Shown one piece after another: positions 16,001 through 51,878 of a stretch of 64,000 nt of DNA; position 1 is the stretch's first letter, and the number at the start of each line of letters is the position of its first letter. The translations under genes were made by a program, and so were the position numbers. The stretch comes from Squalus acanthias (lineage: Eukaryota): assembly GCA_030390025.1 (NCBI GenBank), contig CM059432.1, forward strand, positions 60,948,001 through 61,012,000. The letters are read 5' to 3'. The notes beneath the pieces are model-generated. The model saw nothing but the letters and a program-made list of their open reading frames with translations, had not been told where the DNA came from and did no database searches.

Positions 16001-16141
16001 TAAGGTGAAGCCTCCACAGGAATTGCTCCTCTAACAAATGAAAGCATGCTCACTTTTGCGCTTCTGGTACTTCCTGACCAGCCTACTAACCTTTCATTGC
16101 TTCTCATCTTATTATAAAACATATAAAAAAATAAAGATACT

Positions 16142-18040: not shown

Positions 18041-18516
18041 GCACTCACACTTTAGTTGGCTCTATGCATCCTAATGTAAAAGTTGAATGTAGCGGAGTGC
18101 CAACATATAGTCTATGCAGGTGACGGGTTTGCAGAGCAAGTTTTCCATCGCCTTCAATGGTAGGTAATTCAGAAGTTGTAAAAATAGAGGGTAATTGCAT
18201 AGAGGTGACCATAAGTATAGGCTGAACTGTAATTCCAAAAATCGTGACAACGTAAGAATGTGAAGAAATAAAGTTGTGTAATCATATAGCACCTTATCAT
18301 GTTTCTCAGAAATGTCTAAAAGCAGCACATAAATGAATAATTTTGGAGTGCAGTGATTGATATTATTTAGGTAAATGCATGTAAGAAAAGCATCTTTAGC
18401 AACCTACTGTATAATTGTTAAACTTGTTAAGAAAAACATCAGAAGCTTTGTCTGAAGACTGCTTAACTTTGTTTAGATAGTACGTCCTTCATGAAACCAC
18501 ATAATGAGACACTTTG

Positions 18517-19170: not shown

Positions 19171-19569
19171 TCTCAAGGTTGCCATTAGTTATCTCATGTT
19201 TATGGGATCATGGCATGAGAAACCATTAGTTTTCTGTTTCTGCCTTATTGGGGAAAGTGCAGAAGTCAGTATGTGGCTGCTTGGCTTGGGAGACATTGAA
19301 ATTAATTGACGTACGGGCACAAAGTTCTGTAAGCACTAATGGGTGATTGACGTATATAAGGCTGGACTTAAAGCATAGATGTTAGAATATTCTGGGAGCG
19401 AAACTAGACACGCTCAAGTGGTAGCAAGGCCATGCGAGCTTAATCACCTCGGAACCTTGTCGGTGTTAAGTAACTTCTTAAAAAAACCTTTATACGTTGG
19501 AACAAAACTCCCTCTAGTCTCTTGATACTACAGACTAAATCTAATATATTTTACTCACAATGCAATAGC

Positions 19570-25126: not shown

Positions 25127-27647
25127 ATGACTGCTTCGAGAGCCAAGACTTCTCCAAGATTCGATGATGACTCCCTCCATGCTTTTGTGGAGGGAGTGAG
25201 AGGGCGCCAAGCGGTACTGTTCCCCTCAAATGGACGGAGGAAGCCTCCTCAGCAAACCAAAGCAGCCTGGCTGCAAATTGCTGAGGAGGTGCGCGCCAGG
25301 TCTTTGTGTTCACGCACCTGGGTTCAGTGCCGGAAAAGGTTCAATGACCTGCTACGCACAGCAAAAGTTAGTATAACATCACACTTACCTTCAATCTGCT
25401 CCCCATCTCTTCTCATCACCAGCACTCTGCATTGTCAACCTACTCCTGCACATCCCAACTTACCCTTACATCCCTTGCACCCTTAACCATCCCTCTCTCT
25501 CTATGTACAGAATCACTTCACCATCCTACTATGCACCCCTCACACTCGCTATCACTGTTATGTAATGGCAACAACTAACAACGCACAGGGAGGGCCCTTG
25601 GTATTGGCACCTCATCTTTGTTTTCCTCTAAGCATCTATGCTATGGATTCTCTACACTCACTCCAACATTCTTGCTCAAACTCCACTTGTGTCGCTCATT
25701 GCAGGAAAAGAGAGCCCACAATAAGAGGGAGAGGGGGAGGACAGGAGGAGGCCCATATTCCATGGCGCATTTAACTAACGCTGAGGAGGCTGCTATCGAC
25801 ATCATCGGAAGTACTGAGGAGCTGGAAGTGGGGGATGGAGTGACGGGTGCAGTAGAGCAAGCTGGTGACAGAATAGATTTGCAACCCTCTCATTTAGATT
25901 TCATGAGTGACTGATATGGCATCTGATATTCATACAGATTGCCATGTACAGCAGGCACTTCAAAGCAATGGAGAGGTACCACCAACGCTGCCTCCACGAG
26001 ATCCTGCAAATCCATTGGCAGGATAGGCGCACCAATGTCAGTCTTCTCACTCAGGCCAACATCCCCAGCATCGAAGCTTTGACCATGCTCGATCAGCTCC
26101 GATGGATGGGCCACATCGTCCGCATGCGCGATACGAGATTCCCAAAACAAGCGCTTTACTCGGAGCTCCGACACGGCAAGAGAGCCCCAGGTGGGCAGAG
26201 GAAACGCTTCAAGGACACCCTCAAAGCTTCCTTGAAAAAGTGCAACATCCCCACCGACACCTGGGAATCCCTGGCCCAAGACCGCACAAAGTGGAGGAGA
26301 AGCATCCGGGAAGGCGCCAAACACCTTGAGTCTCTTCGCCAGGAGCAAGTGGAAGCCAAGTGCAAACAGCGGAAGGAGCGCACTTCAACTCAAGCACCCC
26401 ACCCACCCATCCCTTCAACCACCGTCTGCCCCACCTGTGACAGAGACTGTAGGTCCCGCATTGGACTCATCAGTCACCTGAGAACTAATTTTCAGTGTGG
26501 AAGCAAGTCATCCTCGGTTCCGAGGGACTGCCTAAGAGAAGATATTCATACAGATTGAGTTCTGATCATCTGCACAATGGTATGTGTCTGCTACATTAAT
26601 ATCACATGTCTAACTCATGCATTTACTCCCCCACAGGACCATCGAGAGCCCCCCTCCCCACTGTCCAGGAGGAAGAGCTGGAAGACTCCTCAGAGGAAGC
26701 TGCAGCCTCTGAGAATGCAGTGTCAGCAGAATTGAGTACACCCAGCACCAGCGCAGAGACGCACACCTCGGCGGATCCTTCGCGAGATAGATTAGTGTTG
26801 CCACCTGGTGTATCACAGCTCACAAGTGAGCATCAGCAGATGGTGGAGACAGGTACAGCAGAGGAGAGTCCTCATCGAAGGGCGCTGGATGCTCCTAGCT
26901 CTGTTCAGCTGCATGTGGATGCTGTGCCTCTGGGGCCATCCAGAAAGAGAGCTGGAACTTCAGGAACAAGTGCAGGAGTCTCTGACAGGGTTTGCAACTA
27001 CTGTAACTGCATATGTGCAGAGAATGGAGGAGTCCATCTCAAACACGAGCAATGCCGTGATGCACGCAATGGCGAATGTAGGTACCGCCATGGAACGGAT
27101 GGCAACCTCCATGGAGGACATAAATCGCCAGACTCAAATGAACATGGTGACTCTTCTAAATAGATGGTCTGCTATGGAGGATAGATGGGCATCTATTGAG
27201 GAGAGGAACCAAAGGTACATGGACATCCCTGTTATGAGGACTGTCAGTACAGAGACAGGTCCTCATGGCCCCACTGATGTGCAGCAAGGAGCTTTCCAGC
27301 TACTTGCTAGCAGTGAAGTGCAGGTGACTCATGAGAGTGATGTTGGTGGTCAACAACAAGGAAGTGTGGGCTCCTCTCCAAGCACTCATACTTCCATGCC
27401 ACCGCGGAGACCTCGGTCAGAGCCCCAGATTCCTCACCCAACTGAGATGGCCATCTCAGCCCCTGCACAGCTGCAGGAGGAGCAGACTGTTGCCGAACCC
27501 TCCCAGGCTCCAAAACCCAGAGGACGCCCACCAAAGGCGTCGAAGCAGGCGCAGCATGGACGTGAGCTAGGTGCCTCAAAATCTGCTGAAGCCACAGGGG
27601 AAGCACCACGTAGAAGCACACGTAAGAGAAAGTTAACACACAAATAG
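25127..27647 (+). pseudogene. Harbinger Myb/SANT-like DNA-binding protein gene; exons 25127-25366, 25705-25864, 26637-27647; frameshift near 26950
   Basis: PRFDDDSL...W..IA....RTWVQCRKRFNDL trihelix motif. GT-AG introns have compatible phases (0 and 1). Basic C-terminus PRGRPPK...RRSTRKRK. Confidence 0.82.
25942..26540 (+). mobile_element. RTE-clade LINE 3' fragment inserted in intron 2 of the Harbinger Myb gene
   Basis: QLRWMGHIVRM...PKQALYSEL...KRFKDTLK and a C-terminal CxxC...H finger. 17-bp TSD GATATTCATACAGATTG (25925-25941, 26541-26557). Confidence 0.92.
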
Positions 27648-27933: not shown

Positions 27934-29168
27934 TTACGCAAATCTGGCATGGATTAGTGCATCCCTTGCCTCACGGCCAGCAATGTGCTCACGTGCTGGT
28001 GGAACTGGCACATCCACCTCCGCTAGGTCTTCCTCATCTGCCGCCTCCTCCTCTGGGGAGGAGGAGGAGGAGAAGGCTGTGCGCTGAGCCACTTGTTCCT
28101 CAGGCAGCAGTAAGCCACGCTGCTGTGTGATGTTGTGCAGGGCACAGCAGACCACAATGATTCTGGAGACCCTGGTTGGTGTGTACTTTCGGGCACCACC
28201 AGATCTGTCGAGGCATCTGAATCGCATTTTGAGCAAGCCGATGGTTTGCTCTATGATGCTTCTGGTGGAAATTTAGCTCAAATTGTAGCGCTCCTAAGCT
28301 TTGTTGGATGGCCTCCTCATCGGTGTCATAGCCATGACTTCAGGGGATAGCCCTTGTCTTCAAGTAGCCATCCGGAAAGTTGGGTTGGTGGATTGAAGAG
28401 CTGAGGCACAGTAGAATGCCGCAGGATGAAAGAGTCATGGCAACTGCCAGGGAACTTTGTGCAAAAATGCATAATGTTCTTCCTGAGGTTACACACCAGC
28501 TGGACGTTAAGGGAGTGGAAGCCCTTGCGGTTGACAAATACAGCTGGGTTGTGATGGGGTGCCCTAATGGCCACATGTGTGCAGTCTATGATGCCCTGCA
28601 CCCTTGGGAAGCCTGCCATATTTGCAAAGCCAACCGCACGCACGGTTACACTTGCTTCATCCGTGGAGAAGTGGATGTAATTGTGCGACTTTGCAAAGAG
28701 GGCATCGGTAACCTGCATGAAGCAAGTGTGTGCGGCCGACTGGGAGATGCTGCTGATGTCTGCTGCTGATCTCCGGAAGGACCCTGAAGCAAAGAAGTTG
28801 AGGGCGGTGGTGACTTTGACAGCCACTGGTAAGGAGTGTCCACCTGCTCCTCTGAGCTCCAGGTGTTGGTGCAGCGTTGTGCAGATGTCAGTAGCTACCT
28901 CTCGCGGAAGTCTCAGCCTCCACTGGCACTGCTGCTCAGTCATGTTGAGGAAGCTGATCCTCTGCCTGTAAACCCTGTGTTGGGGGTATCTCCTGCGGCG
29001 AGGTGCAGCCCTGCGCTGACGCCCTCTGCCCTGTGCAGCATCAGGTGGCTGAGGAGAAGGTTGGTGCTCCTGTTGTTGCTGCTGCTGTTGTGCCTGGTTC
29101 CGCTGCAGCCGTGGCTGCTCCTCCTCCGATTCTGAGGACCAGGGTGAGAGGGTATAAATGGTACCCAT
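27934..29168 (-). pseudogene. Harbinger DDE transposase (HARBI1-like), with a frameshift near 28328 and two premature stops
   Basis: [57 protein letters not shown] and CCALHN motifs. Confidence 0.93.
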
Positions 29169-30719
29169 TCGCTGGAATATATCTCAGTTGAGGAACAGAT
29201 GTTATAAGCGCTCAGTCAATGTGGGGAGAGGGTTTTCCAAGGAGGTCACAGTACATATAGATCTCAGCTTAAACACTTACAAGCTCAATAGACCAGCAAA
29301 ATGTGTTCCAAAATCTCAAAACACAAAGTTCTGGCATCTGAAAGTGAGCCATGTTACAGGTCTGCTTTTATGCTGCAGGAGCAGCTGTCAAGTATTCAGC
29401 GAGTTGCTGAACCCGGCACAATCAGCTGCCGTGTTTGTCGCACGACATGCAACAGGCTGAAAATGTAGTAAAATGGGAACAGCCTCTTAAAATCGGATTA
29501 TCTAGGCAGTTAACAAGCTGTTAACAAGCTGTTAACTGCCTTAAGCGGCTTTCCCGCCGTTTGGTGTCGGGTCTGATCGGGCCTCGCAGACCCGACACTT
29601 TGTAAAGTTGTGTGGAGGCGGGATGGCAGGCGGGTTCGCAACCCGCCGTCAGTCATTTTGATTTTAACTCTTGACCCGCCTCCAAACCCGCCCTCTGAGC
29701 GCTGGCAAAATCGCTGCCCTAAGGTTCGCGATTGACTGCAGTGCCAAAACTGTTTTTTTAAATTTTAATCCCCCTTTCCCCCACCTGAGGCCTGTAACAA
29801 TGCTGGACACACAGACTTCCCTTGCACCCAGTGCTGCTAGGGCTTAAATGATGGGAAATACGCTGTTACGTGTTACCTTCATTTGGATGGTGTCATAATA
29901 CACCTGCCCATATCTTGGTAGGTGCATTATGCACCCGACCCCACTTCTGGCAGAATTTTTAATGTGCATGAAAGAGGGAAGGAAATCAGCAAAACTAAAT
30001 TTCACCCCCACCCATCCAGATAATGTCTTTTTTTCCACCCTCAGACATTGGAATTTTGGGACCCTTATGTCATATATTCGTATGCATCAGTGCAATTTGC
30101 ATAATATTAAAAACAATCTGTTCAAGATTCGAAAATTGATGTACCATAACTGGAAATAAACACATACAAAGAAATCATTTTGGGATGTAGAACTAATATC
30201 AGAAGAATCTAGTTTTTCTCATGTAAACAGCAACAGTATTGGTGCCATCCACAACAGCATCCCAGAAATAATTTTTTTTTACATTCAGAACAAACTTGGA
30301 TGCACAAAAAATGAACTATCATGTGGATATGCTGTTGAACTGGTTCATGTTCCTGGATGTTACTGTTTACAAGCTCTTATGGGCTAATTATTTTTAATAT
30401 TACAGTATTCAAATGATTATTTCTGAAGAACATTTAATTTATCAAAAATATTTTTGTCTCTCAGGTGTCTTAATAGAGCTTTTGAATTGTTATTCCAGTC
30501 ATTTGGATAATACTGTGGTACAATTCCCTAAGAACCAATCATATTACTATCTACTTTTTTGGTCTCTACATGATAATGATATGGTCATGAAAAAAATTAT
30601 TTCATTTTTAGCAATTCAGTTACTAAACTGTTCAGGAAAATAAAATTTGAATATATTGTAAGCCGAATGAGATAGTGTAATTATAAGATGTCATGGAAGA
30701 TGATGAATCACAATTTGTC

Positions 30720-31952: not shown

Positions 31953-33818
31953 ACGTCAACCTCATTTATTGCTATTGTGTTGTCTATCTGTTACCTAATT
32001 TCCACCACACCTATCCAATTCAAACCTTTTAAGCCTATCATTGGTCAATTAGCATCATATTTTTCTTGTTTCTTTCATTTTGTATACTTTTGAGTCTGCG
32101 ACAGTGCTGTATAACTAAGTTATGGATACAGAGCACTGCAGTGTTGTCCTTTGATTCATATGGATGGCAGTGAAAAATGTTGCATCCTCTAATTAGTGGA
32201 TAAAATGTATCAATGTGAGGTCAGTGAGCCCTTTATTCTTGTGGACTCTTCTCCCAGTCATTCGTATGATTTCCTTTAACATTTACAATGTTGCAGGGCC
32301 TTACTTTTTTTTTTACCAAATATGACTTCAAATGAGCTCTGCAAAATCCAGAGAATCCAAGCAGGACACTTAATCCACAAAAATAAAAACTGGTAGCAAG
32401 TAACCAAGCTTATGATAACATTGAAGAAAAGCAGTTGTTACCAACAATTTCAGATGAATAACTCCTGTAGTGATACCGTTCTATGATGTCATACTTATTC
32501 ACAAGGCATGTTAGTTAGATATTAAATGAAAGAAGTTGAAAATTAGGTTTTCCAAAAATGCCACCATCTATTATAATAAATCAAAGGAACTCATAACGTA
32601 CTCACAGGACAATAAAACAAGAGTTTTTCACCAGCTGATAAAGTTAGTGAGGTTGAGACGTTTTTTTGAATTCTTACCTCCTTAATTTTTTCCCCTTTCA
32701 CTCCCAAACCAACTACGGCATACAGACTCAACTGAAATTTAAAAGTATCTTTCTAAAGTGGAATAGCAGCCTTTTCTGCTTTGCTTTTCAGAATAAATTA
32801 ATTCTGTGCTGAAACTTTTTTAAAAACACAACTTTTATTTTTTTTTGAAGAAAGCAGGAACCTGGTAAAGAGAAAATTCTCCTGGATCGACCGATCTGAA
32901 TTGCACCAATAAAATGGATCCCATTTCTTTAACCATATAGTTGTTTAAGTAATATAATTTGATTTCCATAATTTTTAAGAACATAGTGGAAAGGAAAGCT
33001 CTGTGAACTAATCATTCTGACTTGTATGACAAAAGTTACGCTGAAAATTATAATATATACAGAGTGACATGATATTTAACATATAGAAAATGAGATTGCT
33101 CACCTTGGTAAAAATATTCAAAGAAATTCTTTCAACTTTTTTTGTGAAAAGTGGAATTAAAGCACTTTTGACCAGTTCAAATCCTTAATTCCTGATACCA
33201 ATATCAATTCAGTTATGGACACTGAAACTGCCATAAAGTACATTACCCAGTTGATATCATACATCCACAGGAACTCCTGTGAGATGCTAACATACGTCAT
33301 GCCTTAGGACTAGTTGGGCCGAATGGCCTGTTTCTGTGCTGTATATTCTATGCAAGTATCTCCCAAACTCCATCAGGGACTTTTGTTTGTACTTCTGCTA
33401 AATTATGTATAAGCAACTAGTTATCTGCAGTGTATTAATCAGAATGAGGAAAAAGAATAATTGCATATATTAGAAATAACTCAGTGTTCAGCATGTCAAA
33501 GAATAGATTTGGAGAAAAGTTTGTAGACAGGTACAGTACATAAGACACAGAATATTGTTTATCATATTTTATGCGGCACTTCAATCATCAACCTTTGAAA
33601 CTACAATCATTCACATAAAATATTCTCCTAGACACCAGTGACGCAAAGTAAACATGGTTTAGATGAAAGGGAAAGGTCTTTGAACTGATGTTACCAAAAA
33701 TAACATTAAAAAAAATCATCAGAATGGTGGGGGGTGGGGAAAAAAATCTTGTGATGAGTTTATGCATGGGAACTGGATGCAGACTGGGAATGGGTTGTAT
33801 TTGGACAGTCCAACTCAC

Positions 33819-34010
33819 CGTCTCAAAACCATTCTTTTTCATCCGCCTGCAGGACTTGAGGTAAGTACGTATGCGCTTCCGGGCACGCTCCTGATATTCA
33901 GGGAATTGCCGGCTGCATGACTCAATTATTGCCTGGATCTTTTCTTTGGGCTGCTTAGAAATGGGGACCATTCGGTCCAAGTTTTCATCTACAAACAGCC
34001 TCACAAACAT
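33819..34010 (-). CDS. NOL4: NOL4 internal coding exon (192 bp, phase 0-0)
   Basis: CAG|ATG acceptor and ACG|GTGAGT donor. Encodes [64 protein letters not shown], the highly conserved NOL4/NOL4L block, and joins in frame to the neighbouring exons. Confidence 0.95.
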
Positions 34011-36555: not shown

Positions 36556-36877
36556 GGCTCATAAGTTAGCTGCGTGTTTTCTACCAAACCAATGGCCTAA
36601 ATTTTAATAGTTTGGCGGATTGGCAGTGAGGGAGCTCGGAAGCGGTCGGGAAACCCGGATAACGAATTTAATGGCAGGGCCTGATTTGCATTGGTAACCT
36701 CTTCAGAGGCTGGCTGGCTGAGGGTGGGTAGGCCTGCGGTACTAGGCTGCAGAGAGGAGGGAGGGATTATGTGGGGGCAGGGGGGTGGTCAGAATGGGCC
36801 GGAAAAGCACGGGTAGGGCCAGAGGAGCGGGGAGGGAGGGTTTGGGACCAATCAGAGGGCTGGAGGAACGGGGAGGG

Positions 36878-39800
36878 TGTAAGAAATCGTGGATTCGAAT
36901 AAATAATAGTTTGTTACAGGCTCCTTAGCTCAGCAGTTTGCCGAAGTTGATGACACAAAAGGATTCCAGTCATGTCAGAAAAAAGAGGTGTACGCAGAGC
37001 TGAATTACGAGGTCAGAACACAAAAATAGGTCTTCGAGTGGACATAGCTAGCCCTGATAAGGGATGCAGCAAGGAGCCGTAGCATAAACAAGCTGTCTAC
37101 GAGAGGGCAACAAGACCTTTAGAACAGAGATAGGGAAATAACTGACCTCAGCAAGATGGGAGGGGAGGCTGTCAGAGGTACCTTGTCCCTTGTAATTGGA
37201 CAATGGGATGGGTAAAAATGATTGACACCAGGTATCCACCAAACCATCGAAATAAGGTGTAAAAATGGGTGACCGAGAGAGGAAAACAGGCAGTTAGGGG
37301 TGAAGGCTACTCCGAGGTGGATGCATGCTGGCTACGTCCTAACACCTTGGTCAAGTTTAGCCTCTGGGGTGGATCGCTGCTGGCCAACGGCCTAACACCT
37401 CCAACAGCTCGAGGGACGACCCAATGGAAGTGACTGCTGCCGCAGGCTGCAGGGATCCACCCAATCCAAGACCACCTGTTCTGCCTCATTCTCCGTCTGT
37501 CTGGTCGTTCCATTCCACTCCAGGGCCGTAGATCACCCTCATCTGTCATGGGTTGTATGTCTACTGTATCTATTTCAATCGCATGTATTATCTGATTACA
37601 CTTAAACTGTAGCTCTTTAATAAAATGCCTTCCAACTCCTAAGACCCTTTGGGTAATCTGTGTGTGACCTGTGATCCTAAATCTTACAGTGGTGTCAGAA
37701 GTGGGATCACAGTGTTGGGAGTTGTAAGGTTCCGGTTCGAGGACCGGAGAGACTTGGTCGACCGCGCATGATCGTCGCTTAAGACTGGGTAGGGAATTCC
37801 CTGAAAGAGGGGAGAGAGAGTGAGTTAAAGGTTAAACCAGAAATACAATGGGGTTGGCATATCACCGGGAAAAGTTGATAGATAGCCTGAAGGAGGTGAA
37901 GCATAAAGAGTAGGAGAGAGAATGGGAGATAGAGAAGGAAAAAAATCTAAACTGCATGATAACCCATCTGAAAACTCAGCAAAGGAAGGAAAAAAACAAG
38001 GAATTAGGGAATAAGTTGCTGAGACAATTTAAAAGAAGGAAAAAAAAGAAACTTAAAGTTTTACCAACAATGAAGCTAGGTTCTGTGCCGAGAAAAATAA
38101 AACACAAGATTGCTAAGTGAAAGCAACGTTAAGGAATGCTGGAATTTCAGTTTGTGTGAAAGTCTGTCTGATTATGAATGTTTAAGAAGTTACAGTATTC
38201 CTTTTGTCTGAAAGTCTGTCTTTAAAAGAAAGTGTCTGTTATGTTTGTTTTAGCTCCACCCACATCTCTGTGCATAGAGCTAAAAACCCTTTAACCCTTC
38301 GTAATCTTGTCTTGGATGTTGGAAGTTTTATGTTCATTTCAATTTAAGATTGTGCACCTAGAAGTGGGAGAAACTTTGTGATTTGCATTTTAAGTTAAAG
38401 ACACTGCTTGTACAGCAAACTGTAGAGGCAGTTTGTTTTACAAAAGATAAGCTTCAGCCTTGAAGTTACGGTTGCCATGGTTTCTGATCGTGTCTGGTAG
38501 AAAATTAATCTGGGCTTTTGAAAGTACTTTGTTTTTATTGGATTACAAAAAAAATTGCTATTGTTTTTTATAGTTTAAATTTAAAATGTGTGATTTTATT
38601 TTAAATGAATTCAAACGTTTACAAAGCACTGTCTTCTTAATTTGGTTGCTGCAAGTCCGAGACGCCCACTCTCTAAGTTTTTGACAAGTAAGAAGTAATC
38701 AGTAATTATAAATTGGGCTGAAAGGAAAAAATAAATTTGTCTATGTTGAAATAAAGAAAGGAGAAAAGGAAAGATTCTGTCTCTTTTCTACTTTCAGTGT
38801 AGTGTCCCTTAAAAAAACTTGTATGAATGTTTTGAAGCTACAAGCTGAGGGAAGCTCCTCCCTCTTTTTCCTTTTGTGTAAAAAGTTCATGGTTTGTTTA
38901 AATGTAAAAAACTAATTGTTCTCCAGTTATATTCAATGTTTTTACACTCATTTGGAAAGGCTTCTGAAAAAAGGACAATAAGAAATATGACGTAATTTAC
39001 TGTTTTCTGCAAGCATGTGCCATTTTGTTGTTTTATCTGTTCTGTATCGTGTTTAGTTAAAAAATATTGGTCTGAATTAAATTGTAATTATTAAAGTTAA
39101 CCAACCTATTAAATTGTGAAAACCCAACTGTCTTTTTCGATCGGGAAAGTTTTTTAAATTTACGTGAAGTGACGCAATTGCGTACGTGTGACAATATTTG
39201 CTCCGCCTTCTTATAAACTTGCAAATGAGTTAACCCTTTCTGCTGGCAGCTGTTTTTTTTTAATTGGTTCACCAAACAACTTTGATCTATGCTTTCTATC
39301 TTTAATATTGTATTGGACAGTAAAGTTCCCCCAGGACTCATGAATGAGATGAATAATAATTAATGGGATGCCCCACTTAAAATGTAAGATTGAAACAGGA
39401 AAATTACACTACCAAATGAGAATTTTCCTAACTTTCTAGTGAAAGTCAGGAAAGTGCAGTTACGAATAGTAAATTGATAGCTCTCTCTTGGAGACATTTG
39501 TGTCCCTGCCTATAATGAACATTTTAAGAAAACTGAATTTGATAGTCTGACCACTACCCGAGACATCAGAACCATACGGTGGAAGATGAGCAAAGATCTC
39601 CAGACAATCTTTTGATAAGATCACCTGAAAGCCCGAGAATGGCTTGTATTGGATGGCACATGTAGCATGATATTGAGATACCAGTATGAGTGTGCAAATG
39701 TGATTTGTTACGTATGAAGCAATTACCATCTGGAAATGCGTGGTGAATTTGCACTGAAGAACGGGTCTCAGACATGCTCAGTTACTTGACAACAGCAGGA

Positions 39801-41849
39801 CATGAAATGGTTACTGTGGTTCAGGAGAGTGAGACAACTTTTAAAGCATTGACACATACTCCATCGAGAAACTATCTAATTAATGAAACAATCAGAATAG
39901 AGTTAAACACACTGTTAGAGGGAATGAAATCATAGTTGAAGTGGAGAGTTACATGGAATTTGGATTGGGACAATTGAGGGCTAAGGAGAAATCATGCTTA
40001 GCAAGAATTAACTACAAGATGGATACGAGTAAAAGAGATCTGGAGAATCTTTTAAGTCCATGATTTGTTGATTTAAATGTTAAACTGTAGTGTCGCTTGA
40101 AGTAATTGTAAGACTGAATTATAACTGTGACTGTATTAATTGTGTTTTGTAGGTAACAGAGTGTGGGAAAAAACAGTACGAATCTAGTATGAGGTGCCTC
40201 CTGTGTCACTACTACCGCAACTACCATGCTTTAAGGGTCTAACAGGACCTGTCCCATTAATAGTCCCAGATTCTGCTTCACACCACATCTACCCACAACC
40301 ATCAGCCAACACGTTTTACTCAATATCAAAACCTATGCTCAAGTGAAACTGACAGTAAATGAGACACTTAAGTATGAGCTGCACAATTATGTGGCACAAT
40401 TCGGGTACGACATTCCCCTGTTGTCTGAGGGCTTCAGTGAGCTCGTGATGTGACTGAACTCCTCCCTAAAGCATTTTTATGTTTTGGAGCAAGACTACTC
40501 AAGAATAGATATTGAAATTGACAGCATAGGGGACGATTCACACTGGTGGGATATTGGGCTTAACCAGCACTAACAAATTAATTAAGCACACTGAAAGAGA
40601 AGATCCAAAGCAAAATAGGGGAGACCCCAGGCGAGGTAAGATCAGGATAGATAGAAGAAGCAGAGGAATTGGAACACCGGAACAGTGAATTGAATTTGAG
40701 TAAGGGGTCAGAGGTTGCTCCTCCCCATCAAAGAAATGGACTGTAAGGAAGGGGGAAATCTTCATTTCTAAGTCTCCCTACTAACTAACGGCCAAGTTGA
40801 GAAAGCAATAAGCAAATTAGGGGACTGCAAGTGGTGGGAAGTAGCTTATAATGCCAGCCAGTATCCCTGGGCACGAATAGTATCAGTGGGCCGATAACTT
40901 ACAACTAGTTAGATTAGTCAAGAGCCGATTGTGAGAAGTCATTAAGGATATTACCTTCTCAAGGTGGGGAGATGTAAGAAATCGTGGATTGGAAAATTAA
41001 TAGTCTGTTACAGGTTCCCTAGTTCAGCAGTTTGCCTAAGTTGATGACACAGAAGGATTCCAGTCATGTCAGAAAAAGAGTTGTTGAGAAAGCTGAATTA
41101 CGAGGTCAGAACACAAAAACAGGCCTTCAAGTGGGCATAGCTAGCCCTGATAAGGGATGCAGCAAGGAGCCGTAGGATAAACAAGCTGTCTACGAGAGGG
41201 CAACAAGGCCTTTAGAACAGAGATAGGGAAATAACTGACCTCAGCAAGATGGGAGGGGAGGCTGTCAGAGGTACCTTGTCCCTTGTAATTGGACAATGGG
41301 ATGGGTAAAAATGATTGACACCAGGTATCCACCAACCCATCGAAATAAGGTGTAAAAAACGGGCGACCGAGAGAGGAAAACAGGCAGTTAGGGGCGAAGG
41401 CTACTCCGAGGTGGATGCATGCTGGCTACGTCCTAACACCTTGGTCAAGTTTAGCTTCTGGGGTGGATCGCTGCTGGCCAACGGCCTAACACCTCCAACA
41501 GCTCGAGGGACGACCCAACAGAAGTGACCTCTGCCGCAGGCTGCAGGGATCCACCCAATCCGAGACCACCATTCTGCTTCACCGTCCATCCGTCCGGACG
41601 TTCCGTTCCGCTCCGGGGCCATAGATCACCCTCATCTGTCATGGGTTGTATGTCTACTGTATCTATTTCAATCGCATGTAGTATCTGATTACACTTAAAC
41701 TGTAGCTCTTTAATAAAAAGCTTGTAAAATTAAATAAATCTGTTGGACTATAACCTGGTGTTGTGCGACTTCTCATTTTAATAAAAAGCCTTACAACTCC
41801 GAAGACCCTTCGTGTAATCTGTGTGTGACCTGCGATCCTAAATCTTACA
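36878..41849 (+). mobile_element. Two-LTR retroelement (non-autonomous ERV/LTR-type): 5' LTR 36878-37688, 3' LTR 40973-41849
   Basis: Two highly similar LTRs of about 0.8 kb with TGTAAGA...TCTTACA termini and AATAAA. PBS follows the 5' LTR and a purine-rich tract (40961-40972) precedes the 3' LTR. Flanks AGGG/GGGG form an imperfect TSD. Confidence 0.93.
37690..37707 (+). promoter_or_regulatory. Primer-binding site complementary to the 3' end of tRNA-Leu(CAA)
   Basis: TGGTGTCAGAAGTGGGAT begins after one spacer nucleotide following the LTR end. Confidence 0.85.
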
Positions 41850-42874
41850 GGGGGGAGTCAGGACCGATCAAAGCGACGGAGGAGCAGCGGGGGGGGGGGG
41901 GAGGGGAGGGTCTGGAGCAGACCAGGGGCCAGAGGAGCAGGGGAGATGGGGTTCAGAGCATTATCTGATGACCAGGAGGAGCACGGGGGGCCAGGAGGAG
42001 CAGGTGGGCAGAGGAGGAGGAGTGGCGAGGAGGCAGACAATTTCGGAGGGCCGGAGGAGCATGAGGAGGGGAGGCCTCATGGTGGGAATTGGAGGCTTCG
42101 TCGGGGGGGTCTCTGATCATCGGGGGTAGGTTGGGCAGGGACGCTGGATCCAGGAGGTAAGTGTAAAGGTACTTACCACCTGGATCCAGCAGTCCTTGCC
42201 TTCCATTAGCTGGTGGGTTTCATGAGGCCTGCAAAACCCGACCAGCGACAGTTAACTTTGAAATGGAGGTTAAATCTGAGGCACGGCAGCCTCATTATAA
42301 TATTTAAATAGGCGACCCAATTCCTGTGAGCGGGTTGGCTGTCTGCCCCCATCTCACCTCCGTTCAAACCGGAAGTGGGCGAGTTGGAGGCGGGTTGTGG
42401 TCGGGATTCAGATTTTTAACACTTTAATTTCCCACACACCAACCCACCTGTTTGTTTTGGTTTAAAATTCCCCCCAATGAGTCAGATTTGCATTGGTAGA
42501 TATAAATAGCACCTTTAATATGCATTGTAATCTTCTCGTACAATAATGCACATTATGGGCCATTCTGTTTCCCTGCAGCCAACACATCGCTCCACTGCCT
42601 GATTACCATTTTAGCAGAGCATTTCCAATCCAGGAGGGAAGGTAAAGAAAGGTCAGAAAAACTAACAGAACCGGTTCCACCCACCAGAAGCATATTTCAT
42701 CGTCCAGATTGTGACACCCTCCTGGAAGAGTATGAGGGTATATAGGCCAGTGGATAGCAGCAGTATGGATCTAACAGGGCAAATAAGAGTTAAAAGAGCA
42801 ATTACACTGACATTCATATGTGCCTAGCAATGAACCAGTAACAATGGCATTGTGTTAAACCTGGACTACATAGT

Positions 42875-43667: not shown

Positions 43668-44885
43668 GGGTATATTATTTTCTTCACTGCCTGGGCGGGT
43701 AATCTGCCAGAATGGACCACCTGCCCATTATAGAACCTGCCCGATTTTAATTTCAGGAGGTGGGTCGTCTATTTAAATATTATAATGAGGCAACCCAAGC
43801 ACCCCACCCACCCGCCCCTTCAACCACCGTCTGCCCCACCTGTGACAGAGACTGTAGGTCCCGCATCAGACTCATCAGTCACCTGAGAACCTATTTTTAA
43901 TGTGGAAGCAAGTCATCCTCGGTTCCGAGGGACTGCCTAAGAGATAATGAGGCTGGAAGCCTCTGTTTTAATCTCCATTTTGTATTTAACTTTAGTTGGT
44001 CTGGTTTTGCACACCTTGTGATACCCGCCAGCTAAAGCAAGGCGAGGACTGTTGTATCCAGGAGGTAAGTGCTTTTACACTTACCTCCTGGATCCAGGGT
44101 CCCTGCCTAACCCACCCCCCGCAATCGGAGACCCCCCCACGAGGCCTCCGATCCCCCCCCGTCCAGCCCTACGATCCCCCCCAGGCCTACGATCCCCTCC
44201 CCCACACCCAGGCATCTGATACTCCCACCATGCTCCTCTGGCCCCCGATCCTCGGGACCCGCCTCACCCCCTGCTATGTCCGCTCCACGGCCCCTGATCG
44301 ATCTTCAGACCCACCCACCCCCGACCCCCGCTCCTCCATGACTCCAATTGATCTTCTGACCCTCCCCCACCCCCCTCCAGGCCGCCGATCGATCTTCAGA
44401 CACTCCTCCACTCTCCGCTCCACCACGCTGCCAATCTTCACACCCAACCGCCCCCCACCTCGCTCCTCCAGGCCGCTGATCGATCTTTAGACCACCCCCT
44501 GCTGCTATGGTTGCTCCCCGGCCCCTGATCGATTTTCAGACCCATCCACCCTCGCTCCTCCACGCCACCAATCTTCAGACCCAACTCTCCTCCCCTGCTC
44601 CTCCGATCGATCTTCAGACCCTCCCCTGCTCCTCCAGGCCGACCATGGTCCCCATACGATCCCTACCTCCCTCCTCTGTGCAGCCTCGTGCCACAGGCCT
44701 ATCCGCCCGGAGCTAGCCAGCCTCTCAATCTGGCTGGCTGCGGGTGGGAAACAAAAGCTTCACATTCACATCAGGCCCTGCCGTTAAATTTGGCAGGGCC
44801 TACAGCAAACCTGCTCTTCCGGGTTTCCCAACCACCTCAGAGCCACCCTGGCCCCCAACCCGCCTTCATGATTAAAATTCAGCCC
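43668..44885. mobile_element. Harbinger-type MITE (reverse relative of 36594-42475) containing an RTE insert
   Basis: Right terminus TTAAAATTCAGCCC, a shared central hairpin, and a C-rich degenerate tandem array. Confidence 0.65.
43792..43943 (+). mobile_element. Short RTE 3' end copy
   Basis: 10-bp TSD ATAATGAGGC (43782-43791, 43944-43953). Confidence 0.88.
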
Positions 44886-45097
44886 ATTATATTCAAAAGC
44901 TTTTAAAACGTGTCTATTAGTGTACTTGCGCCTAAAAAAGCTTAATTTAAAGAGCCTCCTTGAAGGCCCGCAAATGGACCCAATTAGCGGAAACTCGCAA
45001 TGGTGATTAATTCGATCGGGGGCATAGCCAGTTTTGTGGGCAGAGCCAATTTCTAGCCTGATGTTTTTTAAACAGTGCACAAAATCGCGGAAACTCG

Positions 45098-46020
45098 ATG
45101 CGGATGATACCAAATTGGGGGGGGATTGTCAATACTGAGGAGGACTGCAACAAGTTACAGGAGGACATTAATAAACTTGCAGAATGGGCATATAATTGGC
45201 AAATGAAGTTCAACACAAATAAATGTGAGGTATTACATTTTGGTAGGAAGACTCGGGTGTGACTCGGGAGGTCACTTATTACTTGGAGGGTGCGAGTCTA
45301 GGTGGGGAAGAGGAACAAAGGGATCTTGGAGTACAAATACACAAATCACTGAAAGTTGCGACACAGGTTAGCAAGGCCATAAAAAAAGCAAACCAAGCAC
45401 TAGGGTTTATTTCTAGAGGGATAGAATTGAAAAGTAGGGAAGTTATGCTAAACCTGTATCGAACCTTGGTTAGACCACACTTAGAGTACTGTGTACAGTT
45501 CTGGTCGCCATATTATAAAAAGGATATAGAGGCACTGGAGAGGGTGCAGAGAAGATTTACAAGGATGATACCAGAAATGCGAGGGTATACATATCAGGAA
45601 AGGATGAACAGGCTGGGTCTCTTTTCTCTTGAAAAAAGAAGGCTGAGGGGTGACCTAATAGAGGTGTTTAAAATTGTGAGAGGTTTTGATAGAGTGGATA
45701 GAGAGAAAATGTTTCCACATGTGGGGAAGAGCATAACTAGAGGCCATCAATATAAGATAGTCACCAAGAAATCCAATAGGGAATTCAGAAGAGTGGTGAG
45801 AATGTGGAACTCGCTACCACAGGGAGTGGTTGAAGCGAATAGTATAGATGCATTTAAGGGGAGCCTAGACAAGCATATGAGGGAGAAGGGAATAGAGGGT
45901 TATGCTGATAGACTTAGATGAGGAAAGACGGGAGGAGGCTCGAGTGGTGCATAAATGCCGGCATGGACTGGTTGGGCCGAATGGCCTGTTTCTGTGCCAT
46001 ATATCCTATGTAATCCTATG
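45098..46020 (+). mobile_element. CR1 LINE 3' fragment
   Basis: ORF 45259-45921 encodes the CR1 ORF2 C-terminus. Begins at ADDTKLGG and ends in the CR1 tail. Confidence 0.93.
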
Positions 46021-46723: not shown

Positions 46724-49700
46724 ACATAAGAACATAAGAAATAGGAGCAGGGGTAGGCCATTTGGCCCTTCGAGCCTGCTCCGCCATTCAATAAGATCAT
46801 GGCTGATCTTCTACCTCATCTCCATTTCCTGCACTATCCCCATATCCCTTGATTTCCTTAATATTCAAAAATCTATCGCTCTCTGTCTTGAATATACTCA
46901 ACGATTGAGCCTCCACAGCCCTCTAGGGTAGAGAATTCCAAGGATTCACCACCCTCTGAGTGAAGAAATTTCTCCTCATCTCAATCCTAAATGGCCAACC
47001 CCTTATTCTGAGACTGTGACCCCTGGTTCTAGACTCCCCGGTCAGGGGAAACATTCTCCCTGCATCAACCCTGTCAAGCCCTGTAAGAATTTTGTATGTC
47101 TCAATGAGATCACCTCTCATTCTTCTAAACTCTAGAGAGTGTAGGCCTAGTCTACTCAATCTCTCCTCACAGGACAATACCGCTATCCCAGGAACCAGTC
47201 TGGTGAACCTTTGTTGCACTCCCTCTATGGCAAGTATATCCTTCCTTAGGTAAGGAGACCAAAACTGAACACAATACTCCAGGTGTGGTCTCACCAGGGC
47301 CCTATATAATTGCAGTAAGACGTCTTTACTCTTATATTCAAATCCTCTTGTAATAAAGGGCAACATACCATTTGCTTTCCTAATTGCTTACTGTACCTGC
47401 ATGTTAACTTTCAGTGATTCGTGTACAAGGACACCCAGGTCCCTCTGAACACCAACATTTCCCAATCTCTCACCATTTACAAAATACTCTGCTTTTCTAT
47501 TTTTCCTACCAAAGTGGATAACTTCACATTTCTCCACATTATATTCCATTTGCCATGTTCTTGCCCATTCACTTAACCTGTCTATATCCCCTTGAAGCCT
47601 TTTTGCATCCTCCTCACAACTTACATTCCCACCCAGCTTTGTATCATCAGCAAATCATTGATGTAGATTGTGAATCATTGGTGTAGATTGTGAATAGCTG
47701 AGGCTCAAGCACTGATCCTTGTGGTACCCCACTAGTTACAGCCTGCCAACCCCAAAATGATCGATTTATTCCTACTCTCTGTTTTCTGTCCATTAGCCAA
47801 TCCTCAGTCCATACTAGTATATTACCCCCAATCCCATGAGCCCTAATTTTGTTTAATAACCTCTTGTGTGGCACCTTATCGAATGCCTTCTGAAAATCCA
47901 AATACACCACATCCACTGGTTCCCCCTTATCTATTCTGTTAGTTACAACCTCAAAAAATTCGAACAGATTTGTCAAACATGATTTCCCTTTCGTAAATCC
48001 GTGTTGACTCTGCCCAATCCTATCATTATTTTCTAAGTGCCCTGTTACCACATCCTTAATAATAGATTCTAGCATTTTCCCTGCTACTGATGTCAGGCTA
48101 ACTGGTGTGTAGTTTCCCGTTTTCTCTCTCCCTCCTTTCTTAAATAGTGGGGCTACATTTGCTACCTTCCAATCCGCGGGAACTGTTCTAGAATCTATGG
48201 AATTTGGGAAGATGACAACCAATGCATCCACTATCGTTTTCAAAACCCTAGGATGTAGGCCATCAGGTCCAGGGGATTTATTGGCTTTCAGTCCTATTAA
48301 TTTCTCCAGTACTATTTTTTTCCTAATACTAATTTCTTTCAGTTCCTCATTTTCGCTAGATCCTTGGTTCTCCACTATTTCCGGGAAGTTTTTTGCATCT
48401 TCTTCCGTGAAGACAGACACAAAGGCCGCGATTTTGTCATTGGATGCGGCTTGGGAGCGAGTCAGCTGATTTCCGGGTTCCAGTCCCGCCCCCAACTGCA
48501 TCCGGCCCACGGACGTGATTTTACGTCGATTGACATTGTTAAGCCCGCCCTGCGGGCTTGCCGGCCAATTAAGAGGAAGCTGGTCAGATGACGTCATTTG
48601 ATGACGGGTCATCTGCTGGTTTTCTTAAAGGGACCACGCACAATTTTTTTTGACAGCTCATTTCTCAGTGTTTGACAGCATTGAGGTGCTGCAAACACTG
48701 ACAATCACTGTACAAAGGTGAGCTCTTGCACCCAGGCTCTCCAGTGACTCCCTCCTTAGGCTAGAACAGATGGCAACTGCAGGTGAGGTTACAGAAGCGA
48801 TCTGTCACTGGTGAGAGAGGTTCTCCCAATGAGGTGGTACTAGACATCCAATTCAAAACTTGTTACCTACAGAAAAGTGTAAATGCATTAAAAATGATTT
48901 CCCCAACATTTTCTTACCTCTGAAACTCACCAGTGCACCATTTGATCCTTCACACCACTTCTGCAGCTGTCATCAATGCAGAAACATTACAGCAGACTCA
49001 CAACACGCCACACTTACCTGGCGTCGGGAAACCCGAGGCAGAAGCGGCAAAATTGAAAAAGAGCCTGTTAACAACTATCAAGTACCTGTTAACAGGCAGT
49101 TAAGTGGTTATAATCCTCTTCCCGCCGCTAGGTGTCGGGTCCATGCGCAAATCGGGGACCCGACACTTGGGAAGATTAATTGGAGGCAGGTTGACAGCGG
49201 GTTTCCTACCCGCTGTCAATCTTTGCGATTTTGACAGCGGTCCCACCTTCAAACCCGCACTCTAAGTGCCGGCAAAATTCCGGCCAAAGTATTTGTTTAA
49301 TTTCCTTGCCATTTCCTTATTCCCCATTATAATTTCTCCTGTCTCAGTCTGTAAGGGAGCCACATTTACTTTCATTAATTTTTTCCTTTTTACATACCAA
49401 TGGAAGCTTTTACAGTCTGTTTTTATGTCTCTCGCTAGTTTACTCTCATATTCTATTTTCCCTTTCTTTATCAATTTCTTGGTCCTCCTTTGCTGAATTC
49501 TAAAATCCTCCTAATCCTCAGGCTTACTACTCTTTTTGGCAACATTATAAGCCTCTTCCTTTGATCTAATACTTTCTTTAACTTCTCTTGTTAGCCACGG
49601 TTGGACCACTTTTCCTGTGGGGTTTTTGTGCCTTAAAGGAATGCATATTTGTTGTAAATTATGTATTAATTCTTTAAATGCTAGTCATTGCTTGTCTACC

Positions 49701-51878
49701 ATCATACCTTTTAATGTCGTTTCCCAATCTACCTTAGCCAACTCACCCCTCGCAGTTTGCTTTGTTTAGATTAAGACCCTAGTTTCGGATTTAACTAAAT
49801 CACTTTCAAACTCAATATAATATTCTATCATATTATGGTCACTCCTCCCTGAAGGTCCCTTTACTACAAGGTTATTAATTAACCCTTTCTCATTGCACAA
49901 TACTAGATCTAAAATAGCCTGTTCCCTAGTTAGTTCCTCAACATACTGATCTAGAAAACTATCTTGCATACATTCCATGAATTCATCCTCCACACTATTA
50001 CTGCAAATTTGGTTTGCCCAGTCTGTATATAGATTAAGGTCCCCCATGATTACTGTATTACCCTTGTTACATGCACCTCTAATTTCCTGATTTATACTCT
50101 GCCCTACATTACAACTACTGTTTGGGGGCCTATAAACAACTCCCACCAATGTTTTCTGCCCCTTGCTATTTCTTAGCTCCACCCAAACTGATTCTACTTC
50201 TCGATTTTCGGAGCTAAGATCCTTTCTCTCTACTGTCTTTATCCCATCCTTTATTATCAGGGCTACCCCTCCTCCTTTTCCATTTTGCCTATCTCTTCTA
50301 AAAGTTAAGTATCCTAGAATATTTAGTTCCCAACCTTGGCCACTTTGCAACCAGGTCTCCGTTATGCCTATAATATCAAACCTGTTCATTTCTATCTGCG
50401 CTATTAATTCATCTATTTTGTTGCGAATGCTTCGCGTATTCAGATATAGTGCCTTTAGCTTTGACTTTTTTCTATTTTTCCCTGATGTCACCTTAGTCAC
50501 TGATGCCTTATTACCTTTGTTACTCTCTCTGTCCCTTCCTGACGCACTCTGCTTATTTTTACCCAAAACTCTACTCTGCTCTAGAGCCTTGACATTTCTC
50601 TCACTGCTTTTAAATTTACTCTTTCCTGAATCCACCCACCCACCAACCCCCCTTCATTAGTTTAAAGCCCTGTCTACTGCCCTAGTTATTCAGTTCACCA
50701 GGACACAGGTCCAAGCCCAGTTTAAGTGGAGCCCGTCCCAACGGAACAGCTCCCTCTTTCCCCAGTACTGGTGTCAGTGCCCCATGAACTGAAACCCCTT
50801 CCTCCCACATCATTCTTTGAGCCACACATTTAAACCTCTAATCTGTTTGTCCCTATGCCAATTTGCACATAGCTCAGGTAACAATCCAGAGATTATTACC
50901 TTTGAGGTTCGGCTTTTTAATTTGGATCCTAGCTCCTCAAACTCCCTCAGCAGAACCTCATTCCTAGTTCTACCTACGTTGTTGGTTCCTACGTGGACCA
51001 CGACAACTGGATCCTCCCCCTCCCACTCCAAGTTCTTCTCCAGCCGTGAGGAGATGTCTTTAACCCTGGCACCGGGCAGGCAACACAACCTTCGGAACTC
51101 TCGGTCGCAGCTGCAGAGAGCAGTATCTATCCCCCTGACTATACTGTCTCCTACCACAACTACATTCCCTTTCACTCCCCACACTTGAATGGCCTCCTGC
51201 ACCAGGGTGCCATGATCAGGTTGCTCATCCATCCTGCAGGCTTTTCCCTCATCCACACAGGCAGCAAGAACTTCATGCCTGTTGGACAAGGGCAAAGGCT
51301 GAGGCTCCTCCAGTACTGCACCTGGGGGTCCCTTTACCTGCCTGAGTTGTAGTCACACCCTCCTGTCCCTGGCCACTAACCAGACCTGTACCATTACCTA
51401 ACCTAAGGGATGTGACTGCCTCCTGGATCAAAGTGTCCAGGTAACTCTCCCCATCCCTGATGTCCCGCAATGTCTGCACCTCAGACTCCAGCTCAAAAAC
51501 TCTGAGCTGAAGTTCTTCAAGATTGAGGCACTTGGTTGTCCGGGATCACAATGTTCTCCATAAACTCCCGCATGCTGCAGTTGTGGTACACCACCTGCAC
51601 TGCCATCCCTATATGACCTTGTTTTATTTAATTTAATTTAATTTAATTTAATTTGTAATTAGGTAACTTAGTTTACAGTGCAGTTTCTTGACTACTTACT
51701 TGATCTAGTTAAGGGTACTGAAATTAAATATCTACCTATAACACAAAGCACTACAAGTAGTGTAGGCAAAAAGCAGGAACTCCTTCCACCTCTTCTCCGA
51801 TTTCCCACTCTTTCCAAATTCCCAAATAAAACACTCTGTTCAAGTCCACTGCGCTTAATCCCGCTCTGTGCAGACCTG
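46724..51878 (-). mobile_element. Near full-length CR1 LINE (ORF1 with SGNH-esterase domain, ORF2 with APE and RT), degenerate, nested in an older CR1
   Basis: ORF1 motifs VVVGDSIVRG, CLPGARV and VHVGTNN. APE motifs YLNTRSIRNK, GITETWL and SDH. RT motifs YLDFQKAFDKV and VPQGSVL. Possible TSD CCTATA. The host CR1 continues at 46360-46723 and 51879-52425. Confidence 0.9.
48424..49285. mobile_element. Harbinger internal-deletion derivative inserted in CR1 ORF2
   Basis: TIRs GGCCGCGATTTTG / CAAAATTCCGGCC and TSD AAA. The left part resembles 18517-18830 and the right part resembles 29500-29719. Confidence 0.88.

Follow-up and report, generated by a model that had tools for sequence, protein, structure and literature searches.

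What virus leaves behind an LTR element that lacks every enzyme gene but still carries vestiges of an envelope (env) gene? The question is raised by a locus in the 64-kb stretch of Squalus acanthias DNA analysed here (the window). A first-pass annotation had suggested a lokiretrovirus-type origin. The analysis below leads to a different answer: the locus is likely a dead copy of a mosaic LTR element that is non-autonomous, is repeated many times and descends from a fish-type retrovirus with an F-fold Env. Within this reading, the chance that the parent was SnRV-like approaches even, and an epsilon-like parent is a weaker candidate. The parental clade is only inferred, because neither pol nor gag of the parent was reached.

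Structure of the element

The features are collected in Table 1. The paired LTRs, primer-binding site (PBS) and polypurine tract of the first-pass annotation are all confirmed. Aligned over 808 positions, the LTRs show 50 differences, of which 33 are transitions and 17 transversions (K2P 0.065). The 68-nt block of the 3' LTR lies between short direct repeats, and AATAAA is found in this LTR at 41712, 41733 and 41780. The PBS, which we take to be that of tRNA-Leu(CAA), is unique in the window even with two mismatches allowed (0.02 expected).

Table 1. Features of the LTR element and its immediate borders, in window positions
Feature	Position	Strand	Remarks
Left candidate target-site duplication	36873..36877	+	4-6 bp; weak
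5' LTR	36878..37688	+	811 bp, TG...CA; without the 68-nt block found in the 3' LTR
Primer-binding site	37690..37707	+	18 nt; starts 1 nt past the 5' LTR
Possible gag-like frame start	37848..38117	+	Has an ATG; rich in Lys and Glu; a single stop, at codon 22; judged from sequence only
AT-rich interior, no recognisable coding remnant	38118..39369	+	GC 0.30-0.34
Unrecognised, heavily repeated segment 5' of env stub 1	39370..40192	+	High summed contig depth
Env stub 1	40193..40564	+	124 codons, interrupted by stops at 40232 and 40451
Spacer between env stubs	40565..40786	+	No env match; all forward frames lack a hydrophobic anchor
Env stub 2	40787..40885	+	33 codons; end of second heptad and membrane-proximal region
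Polypurine tract containing a single T	40961..40972	+	Abuts the 3' LTR
3' LTR	40973..41849	+	877 bp, TG...CA; extra block at 41709-41776
Right candidate target-site duplication	41850..41854	+	Weak

The interior is 3,284 bp long, and Pfam and motif scans bear out the earlier description of some 3.3 kb without protease, reverse transcriptase (RT) or integrase. None of the eight translations of its six frames, read through with X, matched a Pfam family, and motifs of protease, RT, zinc knuckle, HHCC, CX6CC and the immunosuppressive domain (ISD) are absent from all six frames. The longest forward stop-free run is 72 aa, a length equalled in 131 of 200 shuffles. Rfam returned five matches, every one under its gathering score. 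The possible gag-like start has no database support; it matches no Pfam family and its best PDB match has E 0.51. Thus the element keeps the signals of a non-autonomous element, i.e. paired LTRs, PBS and polypurine tract, with no enzyme-coding capacity.

The candidate target-site duplication has one mismatch at each length tried (3/4, 4/5 and 5/6), and as 5% of random 5-mer pairs reach a 4/5 match in these G-rich flanks, the match is weak. The flanks are colinear parts of a single older repeat that recurs at 43754-44888 on the minus strand, and this is consistent with a true insertion into that repeat. The site probably falls within an intron of a gene of the NOL4 family, encoded on the other strand.

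All parts of the element are highly repeated. In three DNA runs, summed contig depth was 756-27,128 over the 5' LTR and 1,181-70,171 over the interior, against 13-25 for four single-copy intron bins; these sums are not copy numbers and cannot rank the parts of the element. The lack of a recognisable enzyme gene supports the earlier view of a deletion derivative without pol, and the high depth points to many copies. The contig pieces were short and none spanned the whole element. Among the pieces and loose ends listed, which were dominated by a flanking LINE, none ran into pol.

How old is the insertion? The LTR divergence gives 15 My at a rate of 2.2e-9 and 148 My at 2.2e-10 (both rates from PMC4422223), or roughly 15-150 My depending on the rate assumed; the clock is unreliable because the LTR differences are unevenly spread (chi-square p 0.008).

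Two Env remnants

The reading frame at 40178-40573 had been described as an env remnant with a Cys-rich region, a heptad-like stretch and an aromatic WW motif. The frame was quoted with correct coordinates, stops and both sequons, with one residue mis-transcribed just past the second stop. The env homology is real but is confined to 40193-40564 (stub 1), and "Cys-rich" does not hold, as there are three cysteines only. These three are invariant in 15 of 15 aligned family rows. The family alignment upholds the heptad stretch and WW motif: stub 1 consists of the final beta-domain strands, a linker, the second heptad repeat and the Trp-Trp membrane-proximal region. It aligns to residues 570-691 of P0016, an intact relative whose hydrophobic anchor peaks at 703, and thus stops short of the transmembrane helix. 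A phmmer search matched 10 proteins (seven shark, one Xenopus and two unnamed; best E 5e-14), and stub 1 matches the family HMM with iE 6e-34. Judged by these alignments and by the fold of its intact relative (see below), stub 1 is a remnant of a class I F-type Env. The reported absence of a gamma-type ISD/CX6CC motif also stands, both in the six interior frames and in the four relatives checked.

The predicted model of stub 1 shows strands followed by a long helix. Its structural matches are not significant: the top one in BFVD is the WEHV-1 Env at E 0.72, with none at E<=0.001, and the best of 48,161 chains in a structure search reached Z 3.9. When longer relatives of stub 1 were sought with a word index, none of 275 candidates proved to be one.

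A second stub, overlooked in the first-pass annotation, lies 3' of the first. Its nearest relatives are three intact shark proteins, P0006, P0016 and P0017 (the P0016 group), at 55-58% identity.

Do the two stubs come from one env gene? Stub 2 is just 33 codons long, it matches the family HMM with an iE of only 0.004, and a loose alignment between the stubs can be made at the DNA level; one might thus suspect a fortuitous match, or a tandem duplication involving the end of stub 1, in an element with a single env ancestry. This is highly improbable in view of the degree of identity to the P0016 group, tblastn values of E 1e-7 to 4e-7 in a search against the whole window, and a shuffle test in which none of 300 shuffles matched it (z 18-21). 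Stub 2 is also far nearer to the P0016 group, with scores of 105-109, than is the end of stub 1, which scores 42; with the other 20 proteins stub 2 scores 18-58. Stub 1, on the other hand, scores 202-217 with P0020, P0021 and P0004 vs 166-175 with the P0016 group, and in a tree of the stub region it falls inside no supported clade. By these comparisons, stubs 1 and 2 represent one and the same C-terminal region of Env, but each comes from an Env lineage of its own. A frog ERV is said to carry two env genes.

The case for a mosaic is based chiefly on the two stubs, because summed contig depth cannot rank the parts. A frameshift-tolerant profile search of the three regions upstream of and between the stubs gave no score above those of shuffles. 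With a score of 27, segment 39370-40192 did not rise above its shuffles (mean 30, maximum 36) and was not alignable to the shark env family; the positive control scored 169.

An F-type fold in a shark Env family

The fold is best approached through the intact relatives, among them P0013, P0018, P0005 and P0016. These have a furin site near residue 287, a membrane anchor and no large insertion between the subunits. A model of P0016, although of low confidence (mean pLDDT 49.7, pTM 0.35), gave 265 Foldseek matches in the PDB at E<=0.001, with a best E of 4.4e-11; among the matches listed, all are paramyxovirus or pneumovirus F proteins (RSV and parainfluenza F). VIA gave Z 11.7 over 343 residues, with a high rmsd of 19.6. 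The top Atlas clusters are Fusion_gly and Baculo_F (0.92-0.94). In BFVD, the best named matches are a fish filovirus, lispiviruses and baculovirus F, all ahead of any retroviral Env; retroviral Envs follow with WEHV-1 at E 1.6e-7, WDSV at 3.1e-6 and feline foamy virus at 4.5e-6. The Env of SnRV is not among the best 50 named matches.

According to the model, the shark Env family has an F core with beta-rich domains and two heptad regions. The earlier proposal of a paramyxovirus/pneumovirus-F-like class I Env is thus borne out on the intact relative, and the stub joins it by sequence homology. None of 16 family relatives matched Pfam PF00523 at E<=0.5, stub 1 did not match it either, and a PDB search by sequence found nothing significant for P0006 or for family alignment A2.

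Which virus was the parent?

The lokiretrovirus-type assignment fares less well than the fold. If the element were a deletion derivative of a lokiretrovirus (lokiortervirus), it would be the first in cartilaginous fishes, and the 2020 screen covered only six chondrichthyan assemblies. The F-type fold agrees with such an origin, but it is not diagnostic, because the Envs of walleye epsilonretrovirus and feline foamy virus match the same P0016 model. Lokiretroviruses and the shark family both have class I F-type Envs with furin site, heptads and anchor, and without ISD/CX6CC (PMC7947760; PMC9040795). Other lokiretrovirus traits, namely a tether plus second RNase H, a CGIN1-like integrase and an optional smc gene, belong to a region that this copy lacks. 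In the portion of the lokiretrovirus set viewed by eye (eight of 23 Envs, seven covering the stub region), upstream motifs and F-core cysteine spacing are common to both groups, suggesting that they are distant homologues. In that same portion, however, the three invariant cysteines and the Trp-Trp end of the stub are absent from all seven, and the C-terminal ectodomain is unlike theirs. The Env of lokiretroviruses is defined by its link to PF00523, at E 2.2e-7 (PMC7947760, with a different search tool and Pfam version), the link that all 16 relatives lack. The shark family also has about 200 extra N-terminal residues, whereas lokiretrovirus Envs are about 500-560 aa long with the cleavage site near the start. 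The Xenopus match is unlike those Loki-Xla Env ends that were viewed, and no ray-finned-fish protein occurs among the eight named of the 10 matches, although lokiretroviruses are commonest in that group. All six chondrichthyan genomes of the published screen were negative, and in one of them, Scyliorhinus torazame, the Env family is represented by an intact protein. A lokiretrovirus parent is therefore quite unlikely.

Could the parent have been an errantivirus-like element, a Ty3/Gypsy element equipped with an Env of the Baculo-F type? One relative matches Baculo_F weakly (E 0.0011, below the cut-off), and arthropod and rotifer Baculo_F/Gypsy clusters appear in the Atlas at 0.91-0.92. The LTR-end and PBS pattern recurs at two metagenome loci, L001 and L002, whose flanks are unlike this element by eye; the same PBS in two unrelated-looking LTR loci would fit this origin, but for the same reason the PBS is not diagnostic of a clade. 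Every named sequence match is vertebrate, and long LTRs, here about 850 bp, suit ERVs better than errantivirus-like elements. A survey of errantiviruses (10.1101/2023.10.26.564294) reports no intact vertebrate elements homologous to the invertebrate ones. An errantivirus-like parent is unlikely. A fish foamy-like (spuma-like) ERV is very unlikely as the source. Foamy Env has been published as F-like (10.1101/2024.02.09.579661) and has the paramyxovirus/pneumovirus F core in common with the shark family, but it is longer (about 980 aa, vs 740-754 aa for the relatives), carries a receptor-binding module inserted between the subunits where the relatives have no large insertion, and is the weaker match to the shark model, ranking 42nd in BFVD.

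A fish-type retrovirus with an F-fold Env remains the preferred parent. The elephant-shark ERVs fall in the SnRV-like and epsilon lineages (PMC4422223), and an SnRV-like one (CmiERV lineage I), from the same host group, has by eye a similar purine tract, similar LTR start and termini and similar LTR length. Differences are also seen: CmiERV has kept gag-pol, and both complete elephant-shark ERVs, including the SnRV-like one, have by eye a gamma-type Env with ISD and other PBSs. On the epsilon side, walleye Env (WDSV, WEHV-1) is non-gamma (PMC3758190, PMC9967133), as is the shark family, and matches the P0016 model in structure. The walleye proteins are, however, 1,159-1,317 aa long, against 740-754 aa, are 14% identical to the shark family and are missed by sequence search, and WEHV-1 Env ranks 29th in BFVD for the P0016 model, behind non-retroviral F-type proteins. 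A scan of sequence collections for a linked pol confirmed none of five pattern matches in viral contigs, which had no PBS match, and none of 185 in metagenomes.

How might such an element have formed? The family would have been transcribed from its own LTR, co-packaged, and copied by the Gag and Pol of an autonomous helper; coding DNA may have been lost because the RNA signals alone mattered. If the RNAs of two related viruses were packaged together, a switch of template could have joined an interior ending in one Env (stub 1) to the 3' end of a virus with another, i.e. Env tail (stub 2), purine tract and LTR. The stubs have no signal peptide, furin site, fusion peptide or membrane anchor, so no working protein would be made. 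They may be passengers beside the purine tract, a place in which the tails of env genes often outlast deletions.

The MER4-group and VL30-type elements are likewise non-autonomous ERV derivatives. Such elements and this one have kept cis signals, lost enzymes and have a long AT-rich interior and presumed spread in trans; here, however, the residue is two F-type, not gamma-type, Env stubs. In zebrafish, gene-less LTR-LTR elements are 36.5% of ERV-like elements (PMC8672886).

An intact shark env gene

The locus itself represents the ordinary decay of a non-autonomous ERV derivative, and its value is as a pointer. The closest relative of stub 2 is an intact Env of 739-754 aa, 85-88% identical among Heterodontus, Scyliorhinus and Chiloscyllium, which represent three shark orders (GCC29952.1, XP_072333160.1 and XP_067889054.1). 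This Env has possibly been domesticated. The stubs may perhaps stem from shark retroviruses that form a clade not yet described, with its own F-type Env, of which one member was anciently domesticated, stub 2 being a fossil of its viral lineage; this is a tentative proposal. If true, the gene would be a candidate syncytin-like protein or restriction factor with a paramyxovirus-F fold in place of the gamma-type fold, invisible to ISD-based screens. A search of the openly accessible literature, Repbase/Dfam and the supplements of preprints not included, found no description of the Env family or the intact gene.

Finding an F-like Env in an LTR element of a vertebrate is thus no hallmark of lokiretroviruses: walleye and foamy Envs have this fold too, and sharks possess a separate family that goes unrecognised by Pfam. 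Canonical retroviruses and lokiretroviruses have been claimed to have gained env independently (PMC9040795); the shark F-type family, together with the walleye and foamy fold, bears on that claim. Syncytin-like gamma-type Envs are known in chondrichthyans, some proposed as captured (10.64898/2026.05.06.723177; 10.1101/2021.11.23.469661), and like the F-type family they are retroviral Envs in shark genomes. The F-type family falls outside these screens because they required ISD and CX6-7C motifs, and published shark Env surveys based on gamma-type motifs would have missed it. The intact gene, conserved in three shark orders, is a candidate captured fusogen of the F type that can be put to the test.

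Structure and insertion site of the element

The element is a non-autonomous ERV derivative with paired LTRs, a primer-binding site and a purine tract, and it lies where the first-pass annotation had placed it. The 18-nt primer-binding site, which presumably pairs with tRNA-Leu(CAA), begins one base past the 5' LTR and occurs only once in the window; the purine tract adjoins the 3' LTR. Two metagenome contigs (L001:1434-1458 and L002:1333-1357) carry exact copies of the 25-mer formed by the LTR end plus primer-binding site, in an LTR element that appears unrelated, and the 25-mer is thus not clade-specific.

When and where did the element insert? Of 808 aligned LTR positions, 50 differ (K2P 0.065), CpG-type changes account for 19 of the 33 transitions, and the 3' LTR has an extra 68-nt block flanked by short direct repeats. 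The two rates, both taken from PMC4422223, give 15-148 My, a soft date in view of the uneven distribution of LTR differences (p 0.008). The flanks are colinear pieces of one older repeat with a second copy nearby, as expected of an insertion. A candidate target-site duplication is uncertain (3/4, 4/5 or 5/6 matches; 4/5 is reached by 5% of random flank 5-mer pairs). The left flank-LTR junction is crossed by a contig, with 1-2 differences, in two runs from organism A (a coded source of sequencing runs) that belong to different studies, one of which may be the assembly's source. As the NOL4-family exon is on the minus strand, the element probably lies antisense within an intron of that gene. The interrupted repeat contains a near-perfect hairpin, with miRNA-family matches that are sub-threshold only.

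Features of the window (window coordinates)
Feature	Position	Strand	Remarks
LINE fragment	4933-6711	-	RT and endonuclease domains (LINE fragments)
Simple tandem repeat	13571-14402		long; source of spurious low-complexity frames
Further Myb-like frames	about 16035-19306		similar to that at 25061-25483
Myb/SANT-like frame	25061-25483	+	Harbinger-like pair; faces transposase
DDE_Tnp_4 transposase	28329-29183	-	Harbinger-like pair
NOL4-family exon	~33816-33980	-	PF23079, E 6e-32
5' LTR	36878-37688		811 bp; TG start, CA end
Repeated segment	39370-40192		
Env stub 1	40193-40564		internal stops
Env stub 2	40787-40885		33 codons
3' LTR	40973-41849		877 bp; TG start, CA end
Hairpin	42134-42202		68 nt
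Older repeat, second copy	43754-44888		
LINE fragment	45247-46020		
LINE fragment	46926-50653	-	

Open frames in the 3,284-bp interior are no longer than chance (131 of 200 shuffles are as long). Its eight translations hold no Pfam family, and searches for protease, RT, integrase, zinc-knuckle, ISD and CX6CC motifs found none, which bears out the enzyme-less, ISD- and CX6CC-free interior first described. All parts of the element, the non-coding interior included, are highly repeated: summed contig depth over three DNA runs is 13-25 in four intron bins vs 756-27,128 in the 5' LTR and 1,181-70,171 in the interior, with a peak at 39400-40599, a measure that is not a copy number and is unfit for ranking the parts. 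The stretch is partly present in 21 sequencing runs from nine studies and eight coded organisms, each with less than half of its words. The very heavily repeated segment before stub 1 has protein-like stretches in several frames that match nothing tested.

An Env family in sharks

The frame quoted in the first-pass annotation, read through with X at stops, matched 10 of 1.84 billion representative proteins (E<=0.001): seven from sharks (Pristiophorus 3, Heterodontus 2, Heptranchias 1, Chiloscyllium 1), one from Xenopus laevis and two unnamed. Within this frame, Env homology is limited to stub 1 (family HMM iE 6e-34), which corresponds to residues 570-691 of an intact 754-aa relative, P0016, directly before the membrane anchor. 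Three cysteines are invariant across all 15 aligned rows. In P0016 the furin site lies at 287 and the anchor near 703; ISD and CX6CC were sought and are absent. The Xenopus member (P0008/P0015; OCT70400.1, OCT70401.1), dissimilar to published Loki-Xla Env ends, extends the family beyond sharks. Three gene models (P0004, P0010, P0025) fuse an Env-family piece with host genes (CDHR5-like, FBXO15, Niban1-like), and are probably annotation chimeras via intronic insertions, or exonisation.

Is this an F-type (paramyxo/pneumovirus-F-like) Env? The model of stub 1 itself, made up of strands and then a long helix, has no significant fold match, and the assignment accordingly runs from stub to family to intact relative. 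The AlphaFold model of P0016, a modest one (mean pLDDT 49.7), gave 265 PDB chains at E<=0.001 (best 4.4e-11), with F of RSV, parainfluenza, metapneumovirus and henipavirus as the matches; a structural alignment spanning 343 residues had Z 11.7 and rmsd 19.6. Independently, Fusion_gly and Baculo_F clusters rank first for P0016 in the Atlas (0.92-0.94). On this chain of evidence, stub 1 is an F-type Env remnant, and the class I F-like Env first proposed is borne out. The top BFVD match of P0016 is A0A384ZVF2 (E 6.7e-14, 928 aa), the identity of which may point to the closest viral Env of the shark family.

Affiliation of the parent virus

The first-pass annotation had also suggested a lokiretrovirus, and upstream core motifs common to lokiretroviral and shark Envs, noted by eye, do indicate distant homology. 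The fold, however, is not diagnostic, as the P0016 model also matches Envs of WEHV-1 (E 1.6e-7), WDSV (3.1e-6) and feline foamy virus (4.5e-6) in BFVD, all outranked by fish filovirus, lispiviruses and baculovirus F. Foamy Env has been published as F-like (10.1101/2024.02.09.579661, in part available), and walleye Env is described as non-gamma in the available parts of PMC3758190 and PMC9967133. Similarity to PF00523, by which lokiretroviral Env is defined in the available part of PMC7947760, is seen in 0 of 16 relatives of the stub. Eight of the 23 Env proteins in that paper's supplement were compared by eye; seven cover the stub region, and none of these has the three cysteines or the Trp-Trp end. 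The screen reported there, as available, has no lokiretrovirus in six chondrichthyan genomes. A lokiretroviral derivation is thus improbable.

A fish-type retrovirus is the more likely parent, a placement made for an element that itself lacks pol. The elephant shark harbours snakehead retrovirus (SnRV)-like and epsilon ERV lineages (PMC4422223, available part). Purine tract and LTR ends of the SnRV-like ERV resemble those of the element by eye, but its Env is gamma-type and its primer-binding site different.

Two Env ends and a possible route of mobilization

Stub 2 lies directly before the purine tract and represents the same membrane-proximal region as the end of stub 1. It shares 55-58% identity with P0006, P0016 and P0017 (E about 1e-7), and none of 300 shuffles matched as well; it scores 105-109 with this group and <=58 with the other 20 proteins, whereas stub 1 scores 202-217 with its preferred relatives and 166-175 with the P0016 group. 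Since the stubs favour different relatives, the element must carry the tail ends of two distinct Envs. No hydrophobic anchor was found downstream of either stub, and the rest of the interior does not align to the shark Env family, frameshifts allowed. Neither stub can yield a working fusogen.

How did such an element spread? It retains cis signals, lacks enzymes, and has a repeated interior and two env ends. Probably the proteins of a helper packaged its RNA, reverse-transcribed it and integrated the product, and coding DNA would be shed from a helper-dependent element. The interior of one virus was probably joined to the 3' end of a related one by template switching after their genomes had been packaged together.

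A conserved shark Env gene

P0006 (GCC29952.1, Chiloscyllium), P0016 (XP_072333160.1, Scyliorhinus) and P0017 (XP_067889054.1, Heterodontus) are intact F-type Envs of 739-754 aa, 85-88% identical, each recorded on a single large contig. The UniRef label of P0006, 'Ig-like domain-containing', fits its extra N-terminal part. When 8,000 candidates close to P0006 in length were scored against it, only two clusters, of this same set, came up. The three shark orders separated ~200 My ago. That a 750-codon frame is open in all three suggests, at the sequence level, a gene that was captured and is kept by selection, as opposed to a virus that was mobile until recently. The gene is a candidate for domestication, a possibility we rate at somewhat under even. 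The available parts of a 2026 shark syncytin survey (10.64898/2026.05.06.723177) and an anamniote Env survey (10.1101/2021.11.23.469661) treat gamma-type Env only. No description of this Env family was found in the literature searched; Repbase/Dfam and subscription papers, outside its scope, may cover it. The element points to a poorly described F-type Env family in sharks.

Other mobile elements in the window

The DDE_Tnp_4 transposase and Myb/SANT-like frame are taken to be a Harbinger/PIF-type DNA transposon, and the LINE fragments are presumably CR1-type.
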